Shown one piece after another: positions 24,116 to 32,946 of a DNA stretch of 64,000 nucleotides. The stretch's first letter is position 1. Each line of letters opens with the position of its first letter. The notes beneath the pieces were generated by a model. That model was given only the letters and a program-made list of their open reading frames with translations. It was not told the DNA's origin and ran no database searches. The position numbers and the translations under genes are program-made. Source of the DNA: an uncultured bacterium (lineage in GTDB: Bacteria; Acidobacteriota; HRBIN11; JAKEFK01); assembly GCA_963777505.1 (NCBI GenBank), contig CAVZQN010000003.1, positions 224,001 to 288,000 of the forward strand, written 5' to 3'.

Positions 24116-25294
24116 ATGTCCAAAAACAAGATTATCGTACTCATAGGAACGATACTGATTCTTGCGCTATCTTTCTGGCTATATTCGTCTGCCCGAAACC
24201 AGAAATCGCCAAAATATAAGACTGAGAAGATCGAAAAAGGTGATGTCACTTCAACTGTCACAGCCACCGGGACACTGTCCGCATTAACAACAGTAGCTGT
24301 TGGGAGCCAGGTTTCAGGGATTATTTCCGGTCTTCATGCGGATTTTAATTCTAACGTTAAGAAAGGGCAGCTTCTTGCTGAACTGGATCCAATCTCCTTT
24401 CAAGCAGTAGTGGATCAAAGGAAAGCAGATCTTGCGCGTGTGCAGGCTGAAGAAAGGAACGCACGGCTTGCATACGAGCGTGCAAAAAATCTGCTTGAAA
24501 ATGAATTTATTTCTCGATCTGAATACGACACGTCAGAAGGGAATTGGAAAGCAGCTCAAGCTGCGGTCGCTCAATCAGAAGCATCATTAAAACAAGCCGT
24601 AACAAACCTTTCGTATACACGGATTGTTTCACCGATCGATGGAGTTGTTGTGAACCGCCAGATCGATACAGGCCAGACTGTTGCTGCATCCTTTCAAGCG
24701 CCGACTTTGTTTACGATTGCCCAGGATCTAACAAGGATGCAAGTATCTACGACAGTTGATGAAGCCGATATCGGCAAAATCAAAGTTGGGAAGGATGCGA
24801 CTTTTACAGTCGATGCATTTCCCGACCAGATTTTCAAAGGATCAATTTCGCAGGTACGTCTTTCAAGCACTGTGGTTCAAAATGTTGTGACGTATCCGGT
24901 GCTTATTGATGTGGATAATCCGGATCTTTTGTTAAAACCTGGAATGACTGCGAATGTGAATATCCCGGTTGACACTCGAAATGATGTAATCAAAGTCCCG
25001 AATGCGGCATTACGATTCAAGCCAGATCCTTCAGAAATGGAACAAGGTCCAAAGCCTGGCTCTGAAAAAAGACAAGACAAAAAAACTTCCAGCACAGTTT
25101 ACCGAATTGATGTGACTGGGAAATTAACACCTGTTGTCGTTACAGCTTCTATCACAGATGGTGCATTTACTGCTGTCGAATCTGCAACATTGAAGGCAGG
25201 GGATGAGGTTGTGGTTGGTCTTGCAACTTCGCGTGCTATGGAGCAGCAAGGTGGAGTTCAGCAGCGGCGTTCTCGCGGCGGTCGCGGATTCTAA
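24116..25294 (+). CDS. MacA-like periplasmic adaptor subunit
   Basis: [28 protein letters not shown] and LKPGMTA motifs. Confidence 0.93.
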
Positions 25295-26091
25295 TGAGCA
25301 GTCAACCAGTGATGGAGATGATAGATCTGAAAAAGGTCTATCGAATGGGTGAAACAGAAGTACACGCGCTTCAGGGCGTTTCTCTGCAAGTACAAAGCGG
25401 TGAGTTTCTTGCGGTTATGGGTGCATCGGGTTCGGGAAAATCAACCCTCATGAATATCATCGGATGTTTGGATCGGCCCACTTCAGGGCAATACATGCTG
25501 GAAGGTGTCAAGGTTTCGTCGTTAGATCGAGATCAGCGTGCTGAAATTCGGAATGACAAAATAGGATTTGTATTTCAGAGTTTTAATTTGCTGCCACGTA
25601 CATCGGCTCTAGAAAATGTGGAACTTCCATTAATCTATTCAACGAAACATCATTTGAATGATATTCAAATGCGGGAACGAGCGAGAGAATGTCTTAATCG
25701 TGTTGGGCTGGAAGGAAGAGGTGATCACGTGCCGAGCCAGCTTTCGGGTGGTCAACAGCAACGCGTCGCAATTGCAAGAGCACTCGTAAATGATCCCGCT
25801 ATTATTCTGGCTGATGAGCCAACAGGGAATTTAGATACCAAAACATCTGAAGAAGTAATGCTGACACTTCAAAAACTAAATGCCGAAGGAAAAACGATCA
25901 TCTTAATAACACACGAACATGACATTGCGAATTTTGCTAAGCGCGTCATTACGTTGCGTGATGGCCTGGTCATTTCTGATATTTTGAATGATACTTCGAG
26001 GCCCGGCCCAGCGGATGCGGGGATCGGGGGCCGGGCCTCTGAGGCCCGGGTCTCACACCCCGCCACCACAGACCCGGGCCTCGACCGATAG
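25294..26091 (+). CDS. MacB/LolD-type ABC ATP-binding protein
   Basis: [24 protein letters not shown] and ADEPTGNLD motifs. Confidence 0.95.
25998..26082. repeat. Two tandem GC-rich hairpins inside the ATPase 3' end
   Basis: GAGGCCCGGCCC(25998)..GGGCCGGGCCTC(26039) and GAGGCCCGGGTCT(26041)..AGACCCGGGCCTC(26082). Confidence 0.8.
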
Positions 26092-26093
26092 CT

Positions 26094-27323
26094 ATGAACA
26101 AGACGAGTAACACCATAAAAGTTGCTTTTCGTTCAATTGGACGCAATAAATTGCGTTCGATTCTAACGATGCTGGGCATCATTATCGGCGTCGCATGTGT
26201 GATTGCTACGATCGGAATTGGTGAAGGTGCTCGCATGCAGATGGAATCGCAGCTGCGATCACTTGGAACGAACTATCTCATGGTGTTTCCAGGTACGACC
26301 ACATCTTCAGGTGCTCGTTCAGGGTGGGGAACGAATTCAAAACTCAGCGATTCGGATGTTGCTGCGATTCGACAAGAATGCAGCAGTTGTGCTTATGTTT
26401 CGGCTCAGGTTCGTACGGTTGCTCAGATGGTTTATAACAATAAAAATTGGTCCACTTCGGTACAAGGAGTTGAAGTAGATTGGCCGCTCATCCGTACATG
26501 GAATGTTGAAACAGGACAATTTTTCACTGAAGCCGATAATCGTGCGGGCGCAAAAGTTTGCGTCATAGGAAAATCGATTCAAACCGAATTGTTCGGGAAT
26601 GAAGATCCGGTCGGCAAAGTTCTACGCATAAAAAATATTCCATTTCGTGTTATTGGTACGCTTGAAACAAAAGGCGGTTCGATGGTAGGCCAGGATCAAG
26701 ATGATGTAGTTGTTGCGCCATACGAAACCGTGCGGAAAAAATTAATGGGCACGCCTACGCCTGTTGGAATTATTACTGTGTCATCAATGTCGAGTGAAAT
26801 GGTCGAGAATACTGAGCAAGAAATTACCGGCATACTTCGCCAGCGTCATCGTATTAATCCTGACGCAGGTCAGGAAGATGATTTTATGATCCGTTCCCAA
26901 ACAGAGATGCTGGCTCAAGCTGAAATGCAATCCCGTACCTTGAGTATTTTGTTGTGGTCCATTGCGGGCGTTTCGCTGCTTGTAGGTGGAATCGGAATTA
27001 TGAATATTATGCTTGTAAGCGTAACAGAGCGAACCCGCGAAATCGGAATCCGAATGGCAATCGGCGCTAAGGGTAAAGATGTTCGTGCGCAGTTTTTGTT
27101 TGAAGCTATGGTTCTTGCTTTAACTGGCGGTATTCTTGGAATTTTTCTTGGTCTTGGAATTCAAAAGGCTGTCGCGCGCTTTGGTGATTGGCCCGTTTCA
27201 CTTCAGCCTGAAGCTGTTGTTTTAGCTTTCGTATTTTCAGCTCTGGTAGGAATTTTTTTCGGATTCTACCCTGCACAAAAGGCGAGCAGGCTCGATCCGA
27301 TTGAGGCACTCCGTTACGAATAA
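26094..27323 (+). CDS. MacB/FtsX-type ABC permease
   Basis: RSILTMLGIIIGV, GGIGIMNIMLVSVTERTREIGIRMAIGA and LDPIEALRYE motifs. Confidence 0.95.
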   Translation: MNKTSNTIKVAFRSIGRNKLRSILTMLGIIIGVACVIATIGIGEGARMQMESQLRSLGTNYLMVFPGTTTSSGARSGWGTNSKLSDSDVAAIRQECSSCAYVSAQVRTVAQMVYNNKNWSTSVQGVEVDWPLIRTWNVETGQFFTEADNRAGAKVCVIGKSIQTELFGNEDPVGKVLRIKNIPFRVIGTLETKGGSMVGQDQDDVVVAPYETVRKKLMGTPTPVGIITVSSMSSEMVENTEQEITGILRQRHRINPDAGQEDDFMIRSQTEMLAQAEMQSRTLSILLWSIAGVSLLVGGIGIMNIMLVSVTERTREIGIRMAIGAKGKDVRAQFLFEAMVLALTGGILGIFLGLGIQKAVARFGDWPVSLQPEAVVLAFVFSALVGIFFGFYPAQKASRLDPIEALRYE

Positions 27324-27365: not shown

Positions 27366-28262
27366 ATGGATCGAAGAAACTTCCTAAAAGCTATAACAAT
27401 TTCAGCTGGCTATCTGATTCCAAAATTCTCTGCAATCGCCAGTCCGGAACAGAACACGAAAGCTGTATTCACGCATGTTGTACCGGAGTGGCGCACAATT
27501 TCAAAAGGCCTGCATTTCGCAAGGGTAAAAGTGTTTCGAGAAAACAAGGAAGTGGATTCTGTAGGTGTTATTCGAATCCAGCCGAAGCACAATAAAATCC
27601 GCGTCTTTCATTCTTACGATGAAAAAAATACTATCGTTCGAACGTTAGATGAATGGCAGAAAGAAACCTCTGCTCTTGCCTTGATTAATGCCGCGCAATA
27701 CATGGCGGATCCATACTACAAGCCGTGTGCGCTTGTCATCTGCGATGGAAAACAGAAAGGACCATTGCGGAACAAAAGTGTACGTGGAATGTTCGTATCT
27801 GAACCGTTAAAAAAAGATTTGCCCCACGCAGATTTGCTCGACTTCGATTATGAACAGTTTGATTTAGCATCAAGTTCATATAGTCAAGGGATTCAACATT
27901 GGCCGATCCTGTTAGATCGTGAAGGTAGAATTAAGGTTCAGAAATCTGAGCTGCGAGCAAATCGAACAATCGTTGCAAAGAATTCAGACAATGAAATTCT
28001 TTTCTTTACTACAGAACTGCCTTCGTTTAGTCTTTATAATTTTGGACTCTTCTTAAAAGATAGCAACACGCGATCCGATGGTGGATTTAAAATCCACACT
28101 GCTATGAATATGGATGGCGGAAGAGAAGCAAATATGGTTTTACGTTCTGGTGGTTTTTCTTATTCCTCATGGGATTACAACCCAATGGCGAGCAGTGAAG
28201 GGAGTTCCATTTTGGATTTAAAAGCCAGGCTGCCCGGCGTTATTGGGGTTTTTCCACGATGA
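27366..28262 (+). CDS. Tat-exported phosphodiester glycosidase (NAGPA-like) family protein
   Basis: MDRRNFLK twin-arginine signal; LINA, RANRT and AMNMDGG motifs. Confidence 0.72.
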   Translation: MDRRNFLKAITISAGYLIPKFSAIASPEQNTKAVFTHVVPEWRTISKGLHFARVKVFRENKEVDSVGVIRIQPKHNKIRVFHSYDEKNTIVRTLDEWQKETSALALINAAQYMADPYYKPCALVICDGKQKGPLRNKSVRGMFVSEPLKKDLPHADLLDFDYEQFDLASSSYSQGIQHWPILLDREGRIKVQKSELRANRTIVAKNSDNEILFFTTELPSFSLYNFGLFLKDSNTRSDGGFKIHTAMNMDGGREANMVLRSGGFSYSSWDYNPMASSEGSSILDLKARLPGVIGVFPR

Positions 28263-29419
28263 AAGGAATTTTCTTCCTGTGCTTTTCATTCTTTCTATCG
28301 CTGAGTGCTGATGCAGTCGATTTAAGCCTTAGAAATCTTCAAGGAAAAAAAGAAAGTCTGGAAGATTATCGCGGCAAAATTGTCATATTAAATTTCTGGG
28401 CTACGTGGTGTGTTCCATGCCGTAAAGAGATGCCGTTGTTTGTCGAATTACAAAATGAATATGCCGCGCGCGGTGTGCAATGGATTGCTGTATCGACAGA
28501 TCCTGCTGAATCACGAAAAGAAGTGGACGCTTTTGTAAAGGAGTACAAATTAAATTTTCCGGTGTGGGTCGATGGCACATCCGATCATCAATCATCATTG
28601 AAGCTTGCCACCGGATTGCCGGCTACGTTAATTCTCGATGCCGAAGGCAATCCTCGTTTCCGGATTATTGGTGAATCGACTCGGGAAGCACTGACCGAAC
28701 GCCTTGATTATTTGCTTTTACAAAATAAAGGTCTCGCGCCCGCAGAAATAATCTTGCCGCCAGGTTTAACTCCTGAACACTTCCATGAACACGAAGCAGG
28801 TGAAGAGGAAGATCATGAACATGAGGAAGAAATAGCCGAAGCTGGCTCGGCTGTCCCTTCCTGACCGCTTTGACCAGGCGAAGGCAGGGTGATCCGTGGG
28901 ATCGCCGGGATCGATAAAAAGAGATGGATCGTTTCATTCCGTTATTTTCCTGAGCTACTTGATCGTGCGAAAGTACGAGCAACCTTGCAATATCGTTTAC
29001 ATTCCAGAATTCTCGTAGGGGTTGAATACAATCCACTCGTAGATGAAGTTGCACCGCTTGCCAACATAACTTTCGTTTCAGAGACTCAACATCTGCCCGC
29101 AATTATTTTGGCAACAAGCACAGATCGTATTGGTACGCCTGATGGTCAGTCAGTCACATTAACTGCCAGCAAAGATTTGGAATCGTGGCTTCATCTGCCA
29201 ATCGCTCCCTACGCAGGCATTACTTATGGCACGTATGAGGATCGATTCAGACCAGTTGGTGGATTGCTCCTGCGCTTTCATCCCAATTTCTATTCATTGA
29301 TTACATTTGATGGCGTTCATGTGCATCCGGTTGTGACCTACAACTATGGCATGCATGCATTTTCTTTTTTACTTTATAAAGGCAAAGAACCAGGCGTCAG
29401 TTACAGCATTCTGTTCTAG
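28259..29419 (+). CDS. Predicted selenoprotein: TlpA thioredoxin + His/Glu linker + UPLU + beta-barrel-like domain (ORF track calls 28259-28864 and 28889-29419 separately)
   Basis: NFWATWCVPC TlpA motif. Both ORFs share one frame, separated by TGA CCG CTT TGA CCA GGC GAA GGC AGG. The downstream part has amphipathic strands and a terminal Phe but no signal peptide of its own. Confidence 0.7.
28888..28906 (+). promoter_or_regulatory. Candidate bacterial SECIS hairpin
   Basis: GGTGATCC-GTG-GGATCGCC forms an 8-bp stem with a G-initiated loop 22 and 31 nt after the two in-frame UGAs. Confidence 0.55.
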
Positions 29420-29436: not shown

Positions 29437-31122
29437 CTACTTTTCACCTGCAGCAGTAAATACAGGTGCAATGTCTGTTGGAATATCTTTCAAGCCTTCA
29501 GTTACGCGATTGATCTCATCGTTCGTTACACCGTATTTTTCAACAAGCCTGGTTGCACGATCAAAATCACCGGTCGCTTCAATCATCAGCAGTTCATTGG
29601 AAAGGGATTCAACAGCCGTTCGCATTTTTGCTATATCGACCTTGTAATGCTTGTCTGAAGTTGGAACGATCGCACCTTTTTCCCGGAACCAGTTCCACTG
29701 AATTGCAGTTCCTCTGCCATGAGCTTCGTTAATGCCAAATCGCATACTTCGATAGAGCAGTCCTGCATTCGTAATGAAAAGAGTTTCAGCATCAAAAGTA
29801 GACAGGAGCTTTTTATCCATTGCATACAATAAATTCCAAACTCCAAGTACATCTGCTTTGGCTTCTTCGATCGTTGAGTATAAATTTTTCAGCAATAACC
29901 TTGCTTCAACACGTTTGCCATCAGCTCCTTTGATTAAGCCAGGTCCAAGGCCATGCGAAAGTTCATGAAACAAAACATGATTAAAATAAGCATCGAAAGA
30001 AATTCTTGATGCTTGTGAAGGATCAATCAGACGCTCTGCAATGGGCTTACCGGATTGTTTGAATTTTGCTTCCATGACATTTTTCAACAGCACATTCTTG
30101 AAGCCTTTCTTTTCACGGACCTGTTCGTCATTCGGTAAGTTAAATGCAGATGTCTGTACGCCGGCTCTCGCATCTCCAGCAGTGTAAATTTCCTGAACTA
30201 TTTTTAGCGCGGTTGATGAACCACGATTTGGATTTTTATGTTCGTCCGGAATCGGAAGATTCCGTTCCATATCGGATAAGTGTTTTAGATAAATTGCGAG
30301 GCTTTCACTTTCTTTTTGATCAACAACCGTAATGTAGGATGCGTAAGCCGCTTTGTAGTTGAATAGATTGTCTTCATAAACCTCGTAGGGCCCAATAACG
30401 ACTTCGATTGGTGAATCCAAATCAATCCATGCAAAATCACTTGCAGAATAATCGTCATTCAAAAATGCATCAGCCCGTTTTGTTAAATAATCTTTTAACG
30501 AAGCATTCGATGTAAGTTGTGCTGCCTGCCGTAATTTTTTTACAACAGTTTCAATATCTTTTGCGTAATATTGATGATACGGAATCGCGTTTAACTTAGA
30601 GTTCTCCCTGCGAATGACCGTAAAGAGACCATGAAAAGCGTCCTGATCTTCAGGATGCGCTTTCACCCATTTTTCAAACTCTTCTTTTGTCATATCTTCA
30701 GGATAAAATGCCGCTCCTGGCGGTTTTTCTCCTTTCTCTCCAAAAGGTGCAATAAATGGCTTGTCTTCTTCCAATCGATTCCATCTGCCTTTCATCAAGT
30801 CAAAAAGTTCCAAAGCCTGATTGTATTGATGAGATTTGCTCAGCGATTGAAGAGTTTGGCGAAGTTCGATGTTCTTTTCTGAAACCTGTTTGTAAAAGAG
30901 CAGGTCAATTGTTTTCGAAGCCTCAATCAAAATTGCGACGACTTTCTTCTCTTCTTCATTCAGAAGGCTGCGATCATAATCGATAACGGTTCTCGGAAAT
31001 TTTTTCAGTACTTCCGGTATTTCTTGAGATACCTCAAGGGATGGTGATTGTGCAATAGCGGCGGAATTAAATGCCAATAATAAAACAAGAAGTATTCTCA
31101 GAATTTGTTGCCTAAGTTTCAT
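29437..31122 (-). CDS. Exported peptidase family M49 (dipeptidyl-peptidase III-like)
   Basis: IGPYEVYED, AFNLPND, FHELSHGLG and EEAKAD motifs. Confidence 0.88.
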   Translation of the reverse strand: MKLRQQILRILLVLLLAFNSAAIAQSPSLEVSQEIPEVLKKFPRTVIDYDRSLLNEEEKKVVAILIEASKTIDLLFYKQVSEKNIELRQTLQSLSKSHQYNQALELFDLMKGRWNRLEEDKPFIAPFGEKGEKPPGAAFYPEDMTKEEFEKWVKAHPEDQDAFHGLFTVIRRENSKLNAIPYHQYYAKDIETVVKKLRQAAQLTSNASLKDYLTKRADAFLNDDYSASDFAWIDLDSPIEVVIGPYEVYEDNLFNYKAAYASYITVVDQKESESLAIYLKHLSDMERNLPIPDEHKNPNRGSSTALKIVQEIYTAGDARAGVQTSAFNLPNDEQVREKKGFKNVLLKNVMEAKFKQSGKPIAERLIDPSQASRISFDAYFNHVLFHELSHGLGPGLIKGADGKRVEARLLLKNLYSTIEEAKADVLGVWNLLYAMDKKLLSTFDAETLFITNAGLLYRSMRFGINEAHGRGTAIQWNWFREKGAIVPTSDKHYKVDIAKMRTAVESLSNELLMIEATGDFDRATRLVEKYGVTNDEINRVTEGLKDIPTDIAPVFTAAGEK

Positions 31123-31884: not shown

Positions 31885-32946
31885 TTAGCGAACTGATGTG
31901 AAGTAGCCACGCCAGCTCATACCAAATTTGCGGGCCATCGAACCTGTGTTTCCACGATAATTCACAAAGATTTGTTTGTTCTGGCGAACACCCGCTTCAG
32001 CAAGGATCTGCATAATCTTTTGCTGTTTTCCTTCACTGGCAAGCTGCCATGCTGAAAATCCAAATTTATCTGTAGCAAAAAGATCGGCGCCTGCTTTGAT
32101 CAGGATTCGCGCAATATCTCCGTGACCTTTCAGGGCTGCCCACATTAACGGAGTCCGTTGATGATTATCACGGCCATTCACATCTGCTCCGTAATCCAGC
32201 ATCACACGGACCGTATCTTGATAATTCAGAAATGTGGCCATTTTTAAAGGCGTCCAACCTGATTGTGTTTTGATATTGAGATCAGCACCTTTTTCAATAA
32301 CGAAGTGCGCGATATCAAGGTAACCTTTAAATAAAGATTCCATGAGGGCAGTTGTTCCGGAATAGCTAACTTTGACGTTTACATCAGCGCCTGATTCAAC
32401 AAGAGTTTTGGCGATCTCAGTATGTCCGCCGTTTGCCGCCCAAATGAGAGGTGTCCAGCCCAATTTATCCTGTGTATTCACTTCGGCTTTGTTTTCAATT
32501 AACTTTCGTACGATATCCATATGGCCTTGACCAGCTGCCATCATCATGGCTGTTTCTTCGCTGTTATTGCGATCGTCTACTTCAGCTCCTGATGTTATCA
32601 AGACAGTCATTGCTTCAATTTGATTCGCGCTTGCAGCCCACATCAATGCGGTCTTTCCTTCAATATTTCGTGCAGTAACAAATGCGCCTGAGTCCAACAA
32701 AACTTTTATTGCACCGGTGAAGCCCGATGAAGCAGCTAGCATCAAAGGTGTATTGTTGCTTGCATCACGTTCGTTTACGTTGGCCCCGCTTTTTAGTAAA
32801 CCTTCGATCTTGCTTATATTATTTTCTTTAACGGCAGCTGTAAGTTGTCCCGAGGTTTGTTTGGAATTCGATTTATCTGCAAAAGCTGGCGTTAGACTTA
32901 AGACTCCACATACTGCAATGACTAGTATGGAAACAGAAGTGCGCAT
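31885..32946 (-). CDS. Exported ankyrin-repeat protein
   Basis: Signal peptide and about 9 G.TPLM.AA..G repeats. Confidence 0.93.
   Translation of the reverse strand: MRTSVSILVIAVCGVLSLTPAFADKSNSKQTSGQLTAAVKENNISKIEGLLKSGANVNERDASNNTPLMLAASSGFTGAIKVLLDSGAFVTARNIEGKTALMWAASANQIEAMTVLITSGAEVDDRNNSEETAMMMAAGQGHMDIVRKLIENKAEVNTQDKLGWTPLIWAANGGHTEIAKTLVESGADVNVKVSYSGTTALMESLFKGYLDIAHFVIEKGADLNIKTQSGWTPLKMATFLNYQDTVRVMLDYGADVNGRDNHQRTPLMWAALKGHGDIARILIKAGADLFATDKFGFSAWQLASEGKQQKIMQILAEAGVRQNKQIFVNYRGNTGSMARKFGMSWRGYFTSVR

Follow-up and report, generated by a model that had tools for sequence, protein, structure and literature searches.

The stretch analysed here comprises 64,000 nt of contig CAVZQN010000003.1 (positions 224,001 to 288,000) from an uncultured bacterium of the Acidobacteriota and is called the window throughout; all coordinates are window positions. 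The region 28259-29419 (+) is, with a probability of about 0.85, a single gene for an exported protein with two selenocysteine (Sec, U) residues, composed of a signal peptide, a TlpA-like thioredoxin domain, a linker, an arm carrying a U-x-x-U (UxxU) motif and an outer-membrane barrel. The narrower claim, which covers the structure of the gene and the reading of both UGAs as Sec and is drawn from sequence comparison, has a still higher probability and can be regarded as very likely. The protein represents an unannotated and, within the literature searched, undescribed family of double-selenocysteine envelope proteins. Its combination of parts and its location are new, whereas its domain types and its mode of decoding are of known kinds. 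The initial annotation had proposed one 386-aa protein, made up of thioredoxin, His/Glu linker, UPLU motif and barrel and split by gene callers, and every structural test that was run supported this proposal.

Two in-frame UGA codons within one gene

The TlpA-like open reading frame (ORF; 28259..28864, +) ends with GSAVPS-TGA, with the first TGA (TGA1) at 28862-28864, and the next codons are CCG CTT TGA, with the second TGA (TGA2) at 28871-28873. The frame stays open past TGA2 and continues into a 176-aa ORF (28889..29419, +). When TGA is read as U, the product contains VPS-U-P-L-U-PGEGR, with U202 and U205 encoded by TGA1 and TGA2, respectively. The gene thus has 386 codons followed by a TAG stop, and its delimitation is based on the frame, on homologous matches over both halves and on codon conservation across the junction. 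The two ORFs in one frame, separated by TGA-CCG-CTT-TGA, had been described before, and sequence and translation bore this out.

The two halves differ at their N-termini. The TlpA part starts with the hydrophobic sequence MKGIFFLCFSFFLSLSADA, which agrees with the signal peptide that had been assigned to it. The distal ORF begins with the non-hydrophobic sequence MIRGIAGIDKKRW and ends with YSILF. The initial annotation had stated that the distal ORF has neither a signal peptide nor a clear ribosome-binding site; the first part of this statement stood, but the second is not strictly correct, because GAAGG is found 8-12 nt upstream of the GTG at 28889.

Conservation of the two TGAs in relatives

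A first search with the fused protein was directed at 40 relatives and the genome of the window (G000). A single match that covered both halves and contained two TGAs was obtained in 4 of the 41 genomes, G000 included, and one of the four was from another family, at 41% identity. A profile of motif and barrel was then searched in a sample of 401 genomes of the phylum. It matched 32 genomes from 26 of 227 genera, and in 31 of the 32 two TGAs were present inside the match. The junction was located in 30 of these 31 double-TGA genomes, with the locus in G063 left out of the junction analysis, and all 30 loci conformed to the consensus S-x-V/A-P-[SANT]-U-[PS]-x-U-P-G-E-G. The window has the conserved motif S-x-V-P-S-U-P-L-U-P-G-E-G-R-x-[VI]-R-G at 28847..28900. 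One of the 31 genomes (G058, locus L042 in the junction analyses) is unpublished, and G035 and G153 enter only the tallies for 41 genomes, for 401 genomes and for SelA; no argument rests on any of the three alone. In G006 (L013, about 2290-2300) and in G063 (G063:C51:145280-145727) the barrel match consisted of two pieces in different frames, which is due to a frameshift in a pseudogene or else to an error in the assembly.

The search was extended to one genome per species (the GTDB representatives). A contig scan with a single protein as query found no relative; with an alignment of closer relatives as query, at least 525 stretches encoding relatives were found, and there were at least 599 pattern matches. 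The best 80 of the at least 525 loci were analysed, and 79 were TGA/TGA. The search pattern for TGA/TGA was fitted by 78 loci, and L138 is also TGA/TGA but has PGESR. The remaining locus (L100, around 2016) is a natural hybrid, VPS-C-PL-U-PGEGR, with TGC followed by TGA, and no other locus among the 80 has Cys at the first position. At the motif, neither TAA or TAG nor a shift of frame was seen in any homolog examined. According to their record titles, the best 80 loci are mostly from Acidobacteriota (Pyrinomonadaceae, Blastocatellia, Chloracidobacterium, Terriglobia and 'Acidiferrales'). A few carrier records are titled Clostridia, Actinomycetota, Heliomicrobium or Tectimicrobiota, and Verrucomicrobia and Nitrosotenuis occur among the public protein matches; the carrier records titled as other phyla may be mis-binned contigs rather than cases of gene transfer.

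The codons behind TGA2 were the most informative. The four codons directly after TGA2 specify Pro-Gly-Glu-Gly in 30/30 loci, and they vary synonymously, with CCA, CCC, CCT and CCG for Pro, all four Gly codons, and GAA and GAG for Glu. The first in-frame ATG, GTG or TTG past TGA2 is found anywhere from codon 5 to codon 78. In 16 of the 30 loci it is at codon 23 or later, and in G005 and G006 it is codon 65, a position deep within the sequence conserved with the protein of the window. The expectation that the distal ORF lacks its own conserved start was therefore confirmed by the scatter of start positions. The invariance of PGEG at the amino acid level, together with its synonymous variation and the lack of an earlier start, argues for purifying selection in frame from the codon after TGA2. 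The sequence comparison thus indicates that both UGAs are translated in frame.

Cysteine homologs

An exhaustive HMMER search with the 191-residue motif and barrel as query, in which TGA was read as C, yielded 215 proteins at E up to 0.001. Among the 150 matches listed, five proteins had CxxC at the aligned place. One of them (P0002) contains LVPSCALCP after the tail of a thioredoxin domain, two (P0100 and P0129) consist of a signal peptide, PTCAGCA[GA]EAR and the barrel, and two (P0089 and P0146) have a YHS or YHS-like domain, PTCAGCAGEA[RK] and the barrel. Other proteins, e.g. P0025, P0047 and P0010, are without any Cys pair, and thus the pair is typical of, but not universal in, the wider barrel family. 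A minimal Cys-only form was found in G296 (G296:C131:48611-49162, locus L165), where a signal peptide is followed by ECGPFCPVCSGS and the barrel. The flanks of the G296 locus have a low GC content and are quite unlike those of the other loci. From these alignments, the residue at the two UGA positions alternates with Cys in relatives. The initial annotation had named TGA or Cys at both positions as the pattern to look for in homologs, and the double TGA in the phylum sample and among the best 80 loci, together with these Cys forms elsewhere, corresponds to it.

The hairpin downstream of the UGAs

Bacterial Sec insertion uses a stem-loop just 3' of the UGA, and criteria for the bacterial selenocysteine insertion sequence (bSECIS) include a G in the apical loop, at a distance of 16-37 nt. 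A SECIS-like hairpin was found at 28888..28906 (+) by folding and covariation, with arms at 28888-28895 and 28899-28906 and the loop GUG at 28896-28898. It has 8 bp, including one G-U pair, and its start follows TGA1 by 23 nt and TGA2 by 14 nt. As the initial annotation had stated, the loop G is found 31 nt downstream of TGA1 and 22 nt downstream of TGA2. Counted from the U of each codon, the distances are 34 nt (TGA1) and 25 nt (TGA2), which is within the bSECIS range.

Covariation was tested with the 30 junctions, which could be aligned without gaps over 78 nt, and the helix comprises columns 42-49 with 53-60. Of all helix cells, 86.3% were paired, and compensatory changes on both sides were observed at 5 of the 8 pairs; one such pair was GC in 20, AU in 7, GU in 2 and CG in 1 of the sequences. 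The observed pairing was reached in 0 of 500 shuffles, and sliding the partner by 1-3 columns reduced pairing to 19-60%.

Selenocysteine machinery and the use of TGA

The machinery that the initial annotation had made a precondition of its reading was found in the genome of the window. SelA (470 bits), tRNA-Sec (69.6 bits) and SelB are present, and selD is itself a selenoprotein gene with an in-frame TGA at SGG-U-AGK (G000:C1:410139-411071, -, locus L031). The selD UGA is followed by the short hairpin CAGUCC-GGU-GGACUUG, which starts 13 nt after the U of the UGA. The hairpin tops of selD and of the gene studied here are alike, with UCC, a G-rich triloop and GGA.

In the phylum sample, SelA was found in 301 of the 401 genomes and in 31 of the 31 double-TGA genomes. 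The sole genome of the sample with a TGA-free homolog (G296, 92% complete) was not among the SelA-positive genomes. No p-value is given for this link because kin genomes are not independent. A genome-wide reassignment of TGA was also considered and was rejected, as TGA is the ordinary stop of 11 of the 35 ORFs of at least 250 aa in the window.

Domains and architectures

The probable signal peptide, which is of the secretory Sec type, occupies 28259..28315 (+) and was modelled, with low confidence, as a helix. The next part is a TlpA/ResA-type periplasmic thioredoxin domain at 28310..28687 (+), which matched the Pfam families AhpC-TSA (PF00578; 92.2 bits, cut-off 26, 3.2e-26) and Redoxin (PF08534; 75.7 bits, cut-off 26.6, 4.3e-21). 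The sequence NFWATWCVPC contains the active site W50-C51-V52-P53-C54 (28406-28420), which has Cys, not Sec. The NCBIfam equivalogs TlpA, ResA and DsbE all scored below their cut-offs (89 bits versus 230 for the TlpA model), and thus the thioredoxin part can be assigned only as a member of the superfamily. The His/Glu-rich linker EHFHEHEAGEEEDHEHEEEIAE at 28775..28840 (+) was predicted to be disordered (predicted local distance difference test, pLDDT, 40-66). The distal half matched no Pfam family at E up to 0.1 and no NCBIfam family.

The frame is open upstream of the motif in 30/30 loci, and what it encodes there was not uniform. The window is of a type in which a signal peptide is followed by a TlpA-like domain and often by a His-rich linker, and His-rich stretches were seen at the linker position in several homologs. 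In a second type, a Cys-rich domain of about 120 residues (GQVVCxxCWxEADR...) is found between the signal peptide and the TlpA-like domain. A third type (G112, G215, G050 and G340) has a signal peptide and a short YHS-like domain but no TlpA, and a fourth (G175) has a signal peptide and a linker only. A W[AC]xxC thioredoxin motif was seen upstream in 74 of the best 80 loci, and in 49 of the 74 it was accompanied by the Cys-rich domain. TlpA is therefore frequent but not obligatory, and the constant unit is U-x-x-U-PGEG with the barrel.

The metal-binding YHS family (PF04945, cut-off 30.3 bits) was matched by P0089 with 47.2 bits, and P0146 (29.7), L051 (20.8) and L057 (19.0) were all below the cut-off; the protein of the window has no YHS domain. 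The Cys-rich N-terminal domain of about 120 residues (GQVVCxxCWxEADR ... C..C) before TlpA was observed in L038, L041, L043, L044, L046, L047, L049, L050, L052 and L056. It matches no Pfam family and may bind metal.

Predicted structure of the barrel and of the full-length protein

The 191 residues of motif and barrel were modelled with AlphaFold2 (AF2) and a 43-row alignment, and twelve strands were predicted with a pLDDT of 87.3 and a predicted template-modelling score (pTM) of 0.81. Foldseek matched the model with FapF, NanC, OEP21, a designed 12-stranded barrel and intimin/invasin barrels. In a Foldseek-independent search (VIA), the matches were the autotransporter EstA (3kvn, Z 15.6), KdgM (Z 15.5), a COG4313 channel (Z 15.2), FapF (Z 15.1), AIDA-I (4mee), NalP (1uyo) and Hbp (3aeh) (Z 13.5-13.8), NanC (Z 13.4) and PcoB (7pge; Z 8.7, root-mean-square deviation (rmsd) 4.8 Å). 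Autotransporter barrels (EstA, AIDA-I, NalP, Hbp and BrkA) gave Z 13.1-15.6, and 12-stranded barrels that are not autotransporters scored alike. The ESM Atlas yielded generic leads, namely clusters that are outer-membrane-barrel-like or 'hypothetical', with YjbH/BcsS at 0.95. By these models, the distal half forms a 12-stranded outer-membrane barrel that is small and has very short loops. It comprises residues of about 223-386 (28925..29416, +), contains the conserved loop TS[ST]DRIGTPxG and ends with Phe, and the earlier description of the distal part as an outer-membrane barrel with a terminal Phe is consistent with it.

The full-length model, made with a 20-row alignment, had a pLDDT of 82.4 and a pTM of 0.47, with values above 90 for the thioredoxin domain and of 80-90 for the barrel. 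Residues 180-218, which include both Sec positions, had a pLDDT of 40-54. UxxU is therefore probably part of a flexible arm, some 17 residues ahead of strand 1.

Alternative explanations

Several observations weigh against one protein with two Sec residues. An in-frame start is present within 14 codons of TGA2 in 14 of the 30 loci, including the window with its GTG at codon 6 and GAAGG upstream, and when judged from one locus alone, such early-start loci could use separate initiation. Kin genomes are not independent, and the counts therefore overstate the number of independent observations. In the window alone the hairpin is unexceptional, with a fold z of -1.36 for the 60-nt piece and 18 of 200 shuffles folding as well, and the minimum free energy structure of this piece selects another pairing; the case for the hairpin thus rests on the comparison with other genomes. 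In that comparison, six sequences of the GRAVSG type, which is a Pyrinomonadaceae-type subgroup, break both top pairs of the helix. This type has no hairpin in the register described above and is the majority among the best 80 loci. Single-sequence folds suggest a hairpin about 4 nt upstream with the loop CGUGA, and the subgroup thus seems to use a shifted hairpin. Furthermore, a single hairpin has to serve two UGAs that are 9 nt apart. The spacing between hairpin and UGA is strict in E. coli, and therefore the decoding of TGA1 is the less certain step.

Three explanations without two Sec residues were considered. UGA1 could encode Sec and UGA2 could be the stop (...S-U-P-L), with the barrel made from a downstream start. 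Sec at three residues from the stop is known from 'UXX-star' families (PMC13188914, Table 1), and the early starts in 14 loci, in the window with GAAGG, would fit. This explanation is nevertheless very unlikely, as PGEG is invariant with synonymous variation right after TGA2 and without a start before it, 16 of the 30 loci have no start before codon 23 and some have their first at codon 65-78, inside the conserved barrel, a separate distal product would be an outer-membrane barrel without a signal peptide, and Cys homologs hold both Cys residues and the barrel in one chain. That both TGAs are stops of two ordinary genes, with frame and spacing coincidental, is in accordance with all public gene calls, in which 162 matches have 96-308 aa and none has 212-676 aa. 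We consider it next to impossible, because 31 of the 32 genomes, and likewise all 80 further loci with the TGC/TGA locus counted, keep frame, spacing and flanking residues, and because the double TGA is linked to SelA, Cys homologs exist, and starts and signal peptides are missing. As a third possibility, a near-cognate tRNA (for Trp, Cys or Arg) or a local recoding signal outside the Sec pathway could let ribosomes read through the UGAs. The full-length reading is silent on the inserted residue, and the hairpin could promote generic read-through. This third explanation is also very unlikely, since relatives have Cys, not Trp or Arg, at these positions, the double TGA is confined to SelA-positive genomes of the sample (31/31), and the top of the hairpin resembles that of the hairpin downstream of the Sec codon in the selD gene of this genome.

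A different question is how the product of such a two-Sec gene might work. An autotransporter-like barrel could export the thioredoxin as a passenger to the surface, or the U-x-x-U arm could thread the pore and pass electrons or metal ions through the outer membrane. Type Va autotransporters have the same order of parts, from signal peptide, passenger and linker to a C-terminal 12-stranded barrel with a final Phe. EstA (Z 15.6), AIDA-I, NalP, Hbp and BrkA are among the best fold matches, and model residues from about 7-9 align to the pore linkers of these structures. On the other hand, no autotransporter Pfam family was matched, the barrel has about 165 residues compared with about 250-300 in those structures, the linker was predicted to be disordered (pLDDT 40-54) and without a helix, and the channels KdgM, NanC, COG4313 and FapF score equally. 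Members without a passenger, consisting of a signal peptide, CxxC and the barrel, exist as well (P0100, P0129 and G296), and a thioredoxin at the surface would presumably be without a known electron donor. We therefore regard this mode of action as unlikely.

Public annotation and literature

No public protein of 212-676 aa matched residues 190-386 at the sensitivity used, and no full-length or U-annotated form was found. The distal half was matched by 162 public proteins of 96-308 aa. Among the 120 matches listed, all are without a Pfam domain and every given source name is 'hypothetical protein'. The annotation error is systematic, in that one gene is called as a 'TlpA family protein' and a 'hypothetical protein', and the public proteins are the separate halves that would be expected if standard gene callers split the gene, as the initial annotation had it.

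A review from 2026 lists 119 selenoprotein families in its Table 1 (PMC13188914), and in this table none corresponds to the two-Sec barrel family. UxxU is given there only for a Prx-like oxidoreductase, the NF041115 metal-binding protein and an FmdB-family protein, and the only outer-membrane selenoproteins are of the TonB-dependent receptor type and the GSU2204/MtrB-PioB type. The mention of SelL as the known example of UxxU has therefore to be widened to these further bacterial families. In the parts of PMC9312934 and PMC12013277 that were accessible, the family is not mentioned. Full-text literature searches retrieved no paper on it, their scope being papers rather than selenoproteome supplements, which possibly list unnamed hypotheticals.

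Comparison with known systems

The bacterial UxxU selenoproteins (Prx-like UxxC/UxxU, NF041115 and FmdB, as tabulated in PMC13188914) also have two Sec codons three residues apart, a predicted decoding via a hairpin just downstream, and Cys homologs. In contrast to those listed families, UxxU is here on a disordered arm before a barrel and not in the active site of a thioredoxin fold or in an HMA-like domain. The distal half had no NCBIfam match to the listed UxxU families. Sec in outer-membrane barrel proteins is shared with the TonB-dependent receptor FCYXU type and the GSU2204/MtrB-PioB barrel, but these have a single Sec and large 22- or 26-stranded barrels and belong to other families, without an NCBIfam match here. 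UXX-star selenoproteins have Sec three residues before the stop, whereas in the window coding conservation continues right after the second TGA.

Eukaryotic SelL, which has a Prx-like fold, resembles the protein in its UxxU motif, which is taken to form a diselenide. In SelL, UxxU replaces the CxxC of the fold itself. The fold encoded in the window retains WCVPC (C51-x-x-C54), UxxU is 150 residues downstream and outside the fold, and the decoding is bacterial. The SelL-related NCBIfam model (SelL_rel_redox) gave 18.3 bits with the protein of the window, compared with a cut-off of 120. The TlpA of Bradyrhizobium has the clients ScoI and CoxB, with copper-site cysteines. Both systems have a periplasmic TlpA-type thioredoxin beside a Cys or Sec pair that probably binds metal, and the reductase would keep the ligands reduced. 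They differ in that reductase and client motif are here in one polypeptide, with Sec ligands and a barrel anchor.

The barrel has the fold of known 12-stranded barrels (type Va autotransporters, KdgM/NanC, COG4313 and FapF), with Z 13.4-15.6 and an rmsd of 2.4-3.1 Å over 150-167 residues, and shares their C-terminal aromatic residue. It differs from them in its low identity (6-13%), its shorter strands and loops (about 165 residues) and the lack of a predicted helical pore linker. In PcoB/CopB, an outer-membrane barrel is preceded by a disordered metal-binding N-terminal region. A functional analogy is possible, but the fold match to 7pge is weak, there is no Pfam or sequence family match, and PcoB/CopB has neither Sec nor a thioredoxin.

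Genomic neighbourhood

The ATG of the gene (28259) overlaps the stop of the upstream ORF as ATGA (28259-28262). This ORF (27366-28262, +) encodes 298 aa with a match to NAGPA phosphodiester glycosidase (37.3 bits), and the overlap of its stop with the start of the selenoprotein gene suggests translational coupling. The glycosidase ORF is not kept as a neighbour at other loci. A MacB-type ABC pair, judged from the translations as an ATPase of 265 aa and a permease of 409 aa, is encoded just upstream (25294-27323, +). An exported peptidase M49-like protein, with DUF6887 as well (74.6 and 30.3 bits), is encoded convergently (29437-31122, -), and an exported protein that looks ankyrin-repeat-like by eye is encoded at 31885-32946 (-).

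Conservation of neighbours was analysed by clustering the ORFs within about 8 kb at 21 loci, with the first residue of each ORF set to M. A third cluster, from 5 loci, consisted of ORFs across the gene on the opposite strand.

Possible function and implications

We propose that the hairpin directs SelB and Sec-tRNA to both UGAs for the insertion of Sec, and that the barrel would be put into the outer membrane by the β-barrel assembly machinery (BAM). The thioredoxin domain and the U-x-x-U arm would remain periplasmic, at the opening of the barrel. A reductase of the CcdA/DsbD type in the inner membrane presumably recharges the thioredoxin, which could keep the diselenide reduced. The selenol pair may then bind or reduce a soft substrate at the pore, for which Cu(I) or another thiophilic metal is the most likely candidate. 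A function in metal handling is proposed tentatively, and we would give it somewhat less than an even chance. It was chosen because of the His-rich linker, because a YHS or YHS-like domain, of a metal-binding family, takes the place of TlpA in other Sec and Cys members, and because TlpA services copper-site cysteines. The Cys-rich domain of some members is a further partner in favour of copper or another thiophilic metal. Alternatively, the role may be purely redox, or the protein may handle selenium or tellurium.

Three results speak against this functional assignment. The placement of the arm relative to the pore lacks confidence in the model. The median number of His in the last 45 residues is 0 for the 79 motif-matched loci of the best 80. 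Apart from the antisense cluster, only the two halves of the gene recur in at least 4 of the 21 loci, and thus no conserved neighbour gene was found; for the same reason, the device seems to be self-contained.

Two serial Sec insertions are likely to be inefficient, and a free thioredoxin of 201 or 204 residues is therefore probably a second product. Selenium supply might set the ratio of free to anchored product. An extension of this idea, which we regard as improbable, is a selenium-gated relay, in which electrons from inner-membrane thiols would pass to the tethered TlpA and on to a U-x-x-U arm that dips into or threads the barrel. The arm would thereby reduce or pass on soft metals or metalloids (Cu, Hg, Se, Te) beyond the outer membrane, with selenium supply deciding between free thioredoxin and anchored device.

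To our knowledge, selenium use in Acidobacteriota, a dominant phylum in soil, has been little studied. The family described here is a two-Sec selenoprotein family that is common in soil Acidobacteria and apparently widespread, with its at least 525 stretches in species representatives. An outer-membrane pore is an unusual place for a diselenide or selenol pair, and two UGAs 9 nt apart that would be decoded with one bacterial hairpin form a natural test case. The exchange of TlpA, a YHS-like domain or no partner before the same UxxU/CxxC-barrel unit offers a handle on the function, be it in copper or soft metal handling or in redox reactions. If the selenium-gated relay is true, soil Acidobacteriota would commonly possess an envelope system for redox reactions or metals that is of a new kind.

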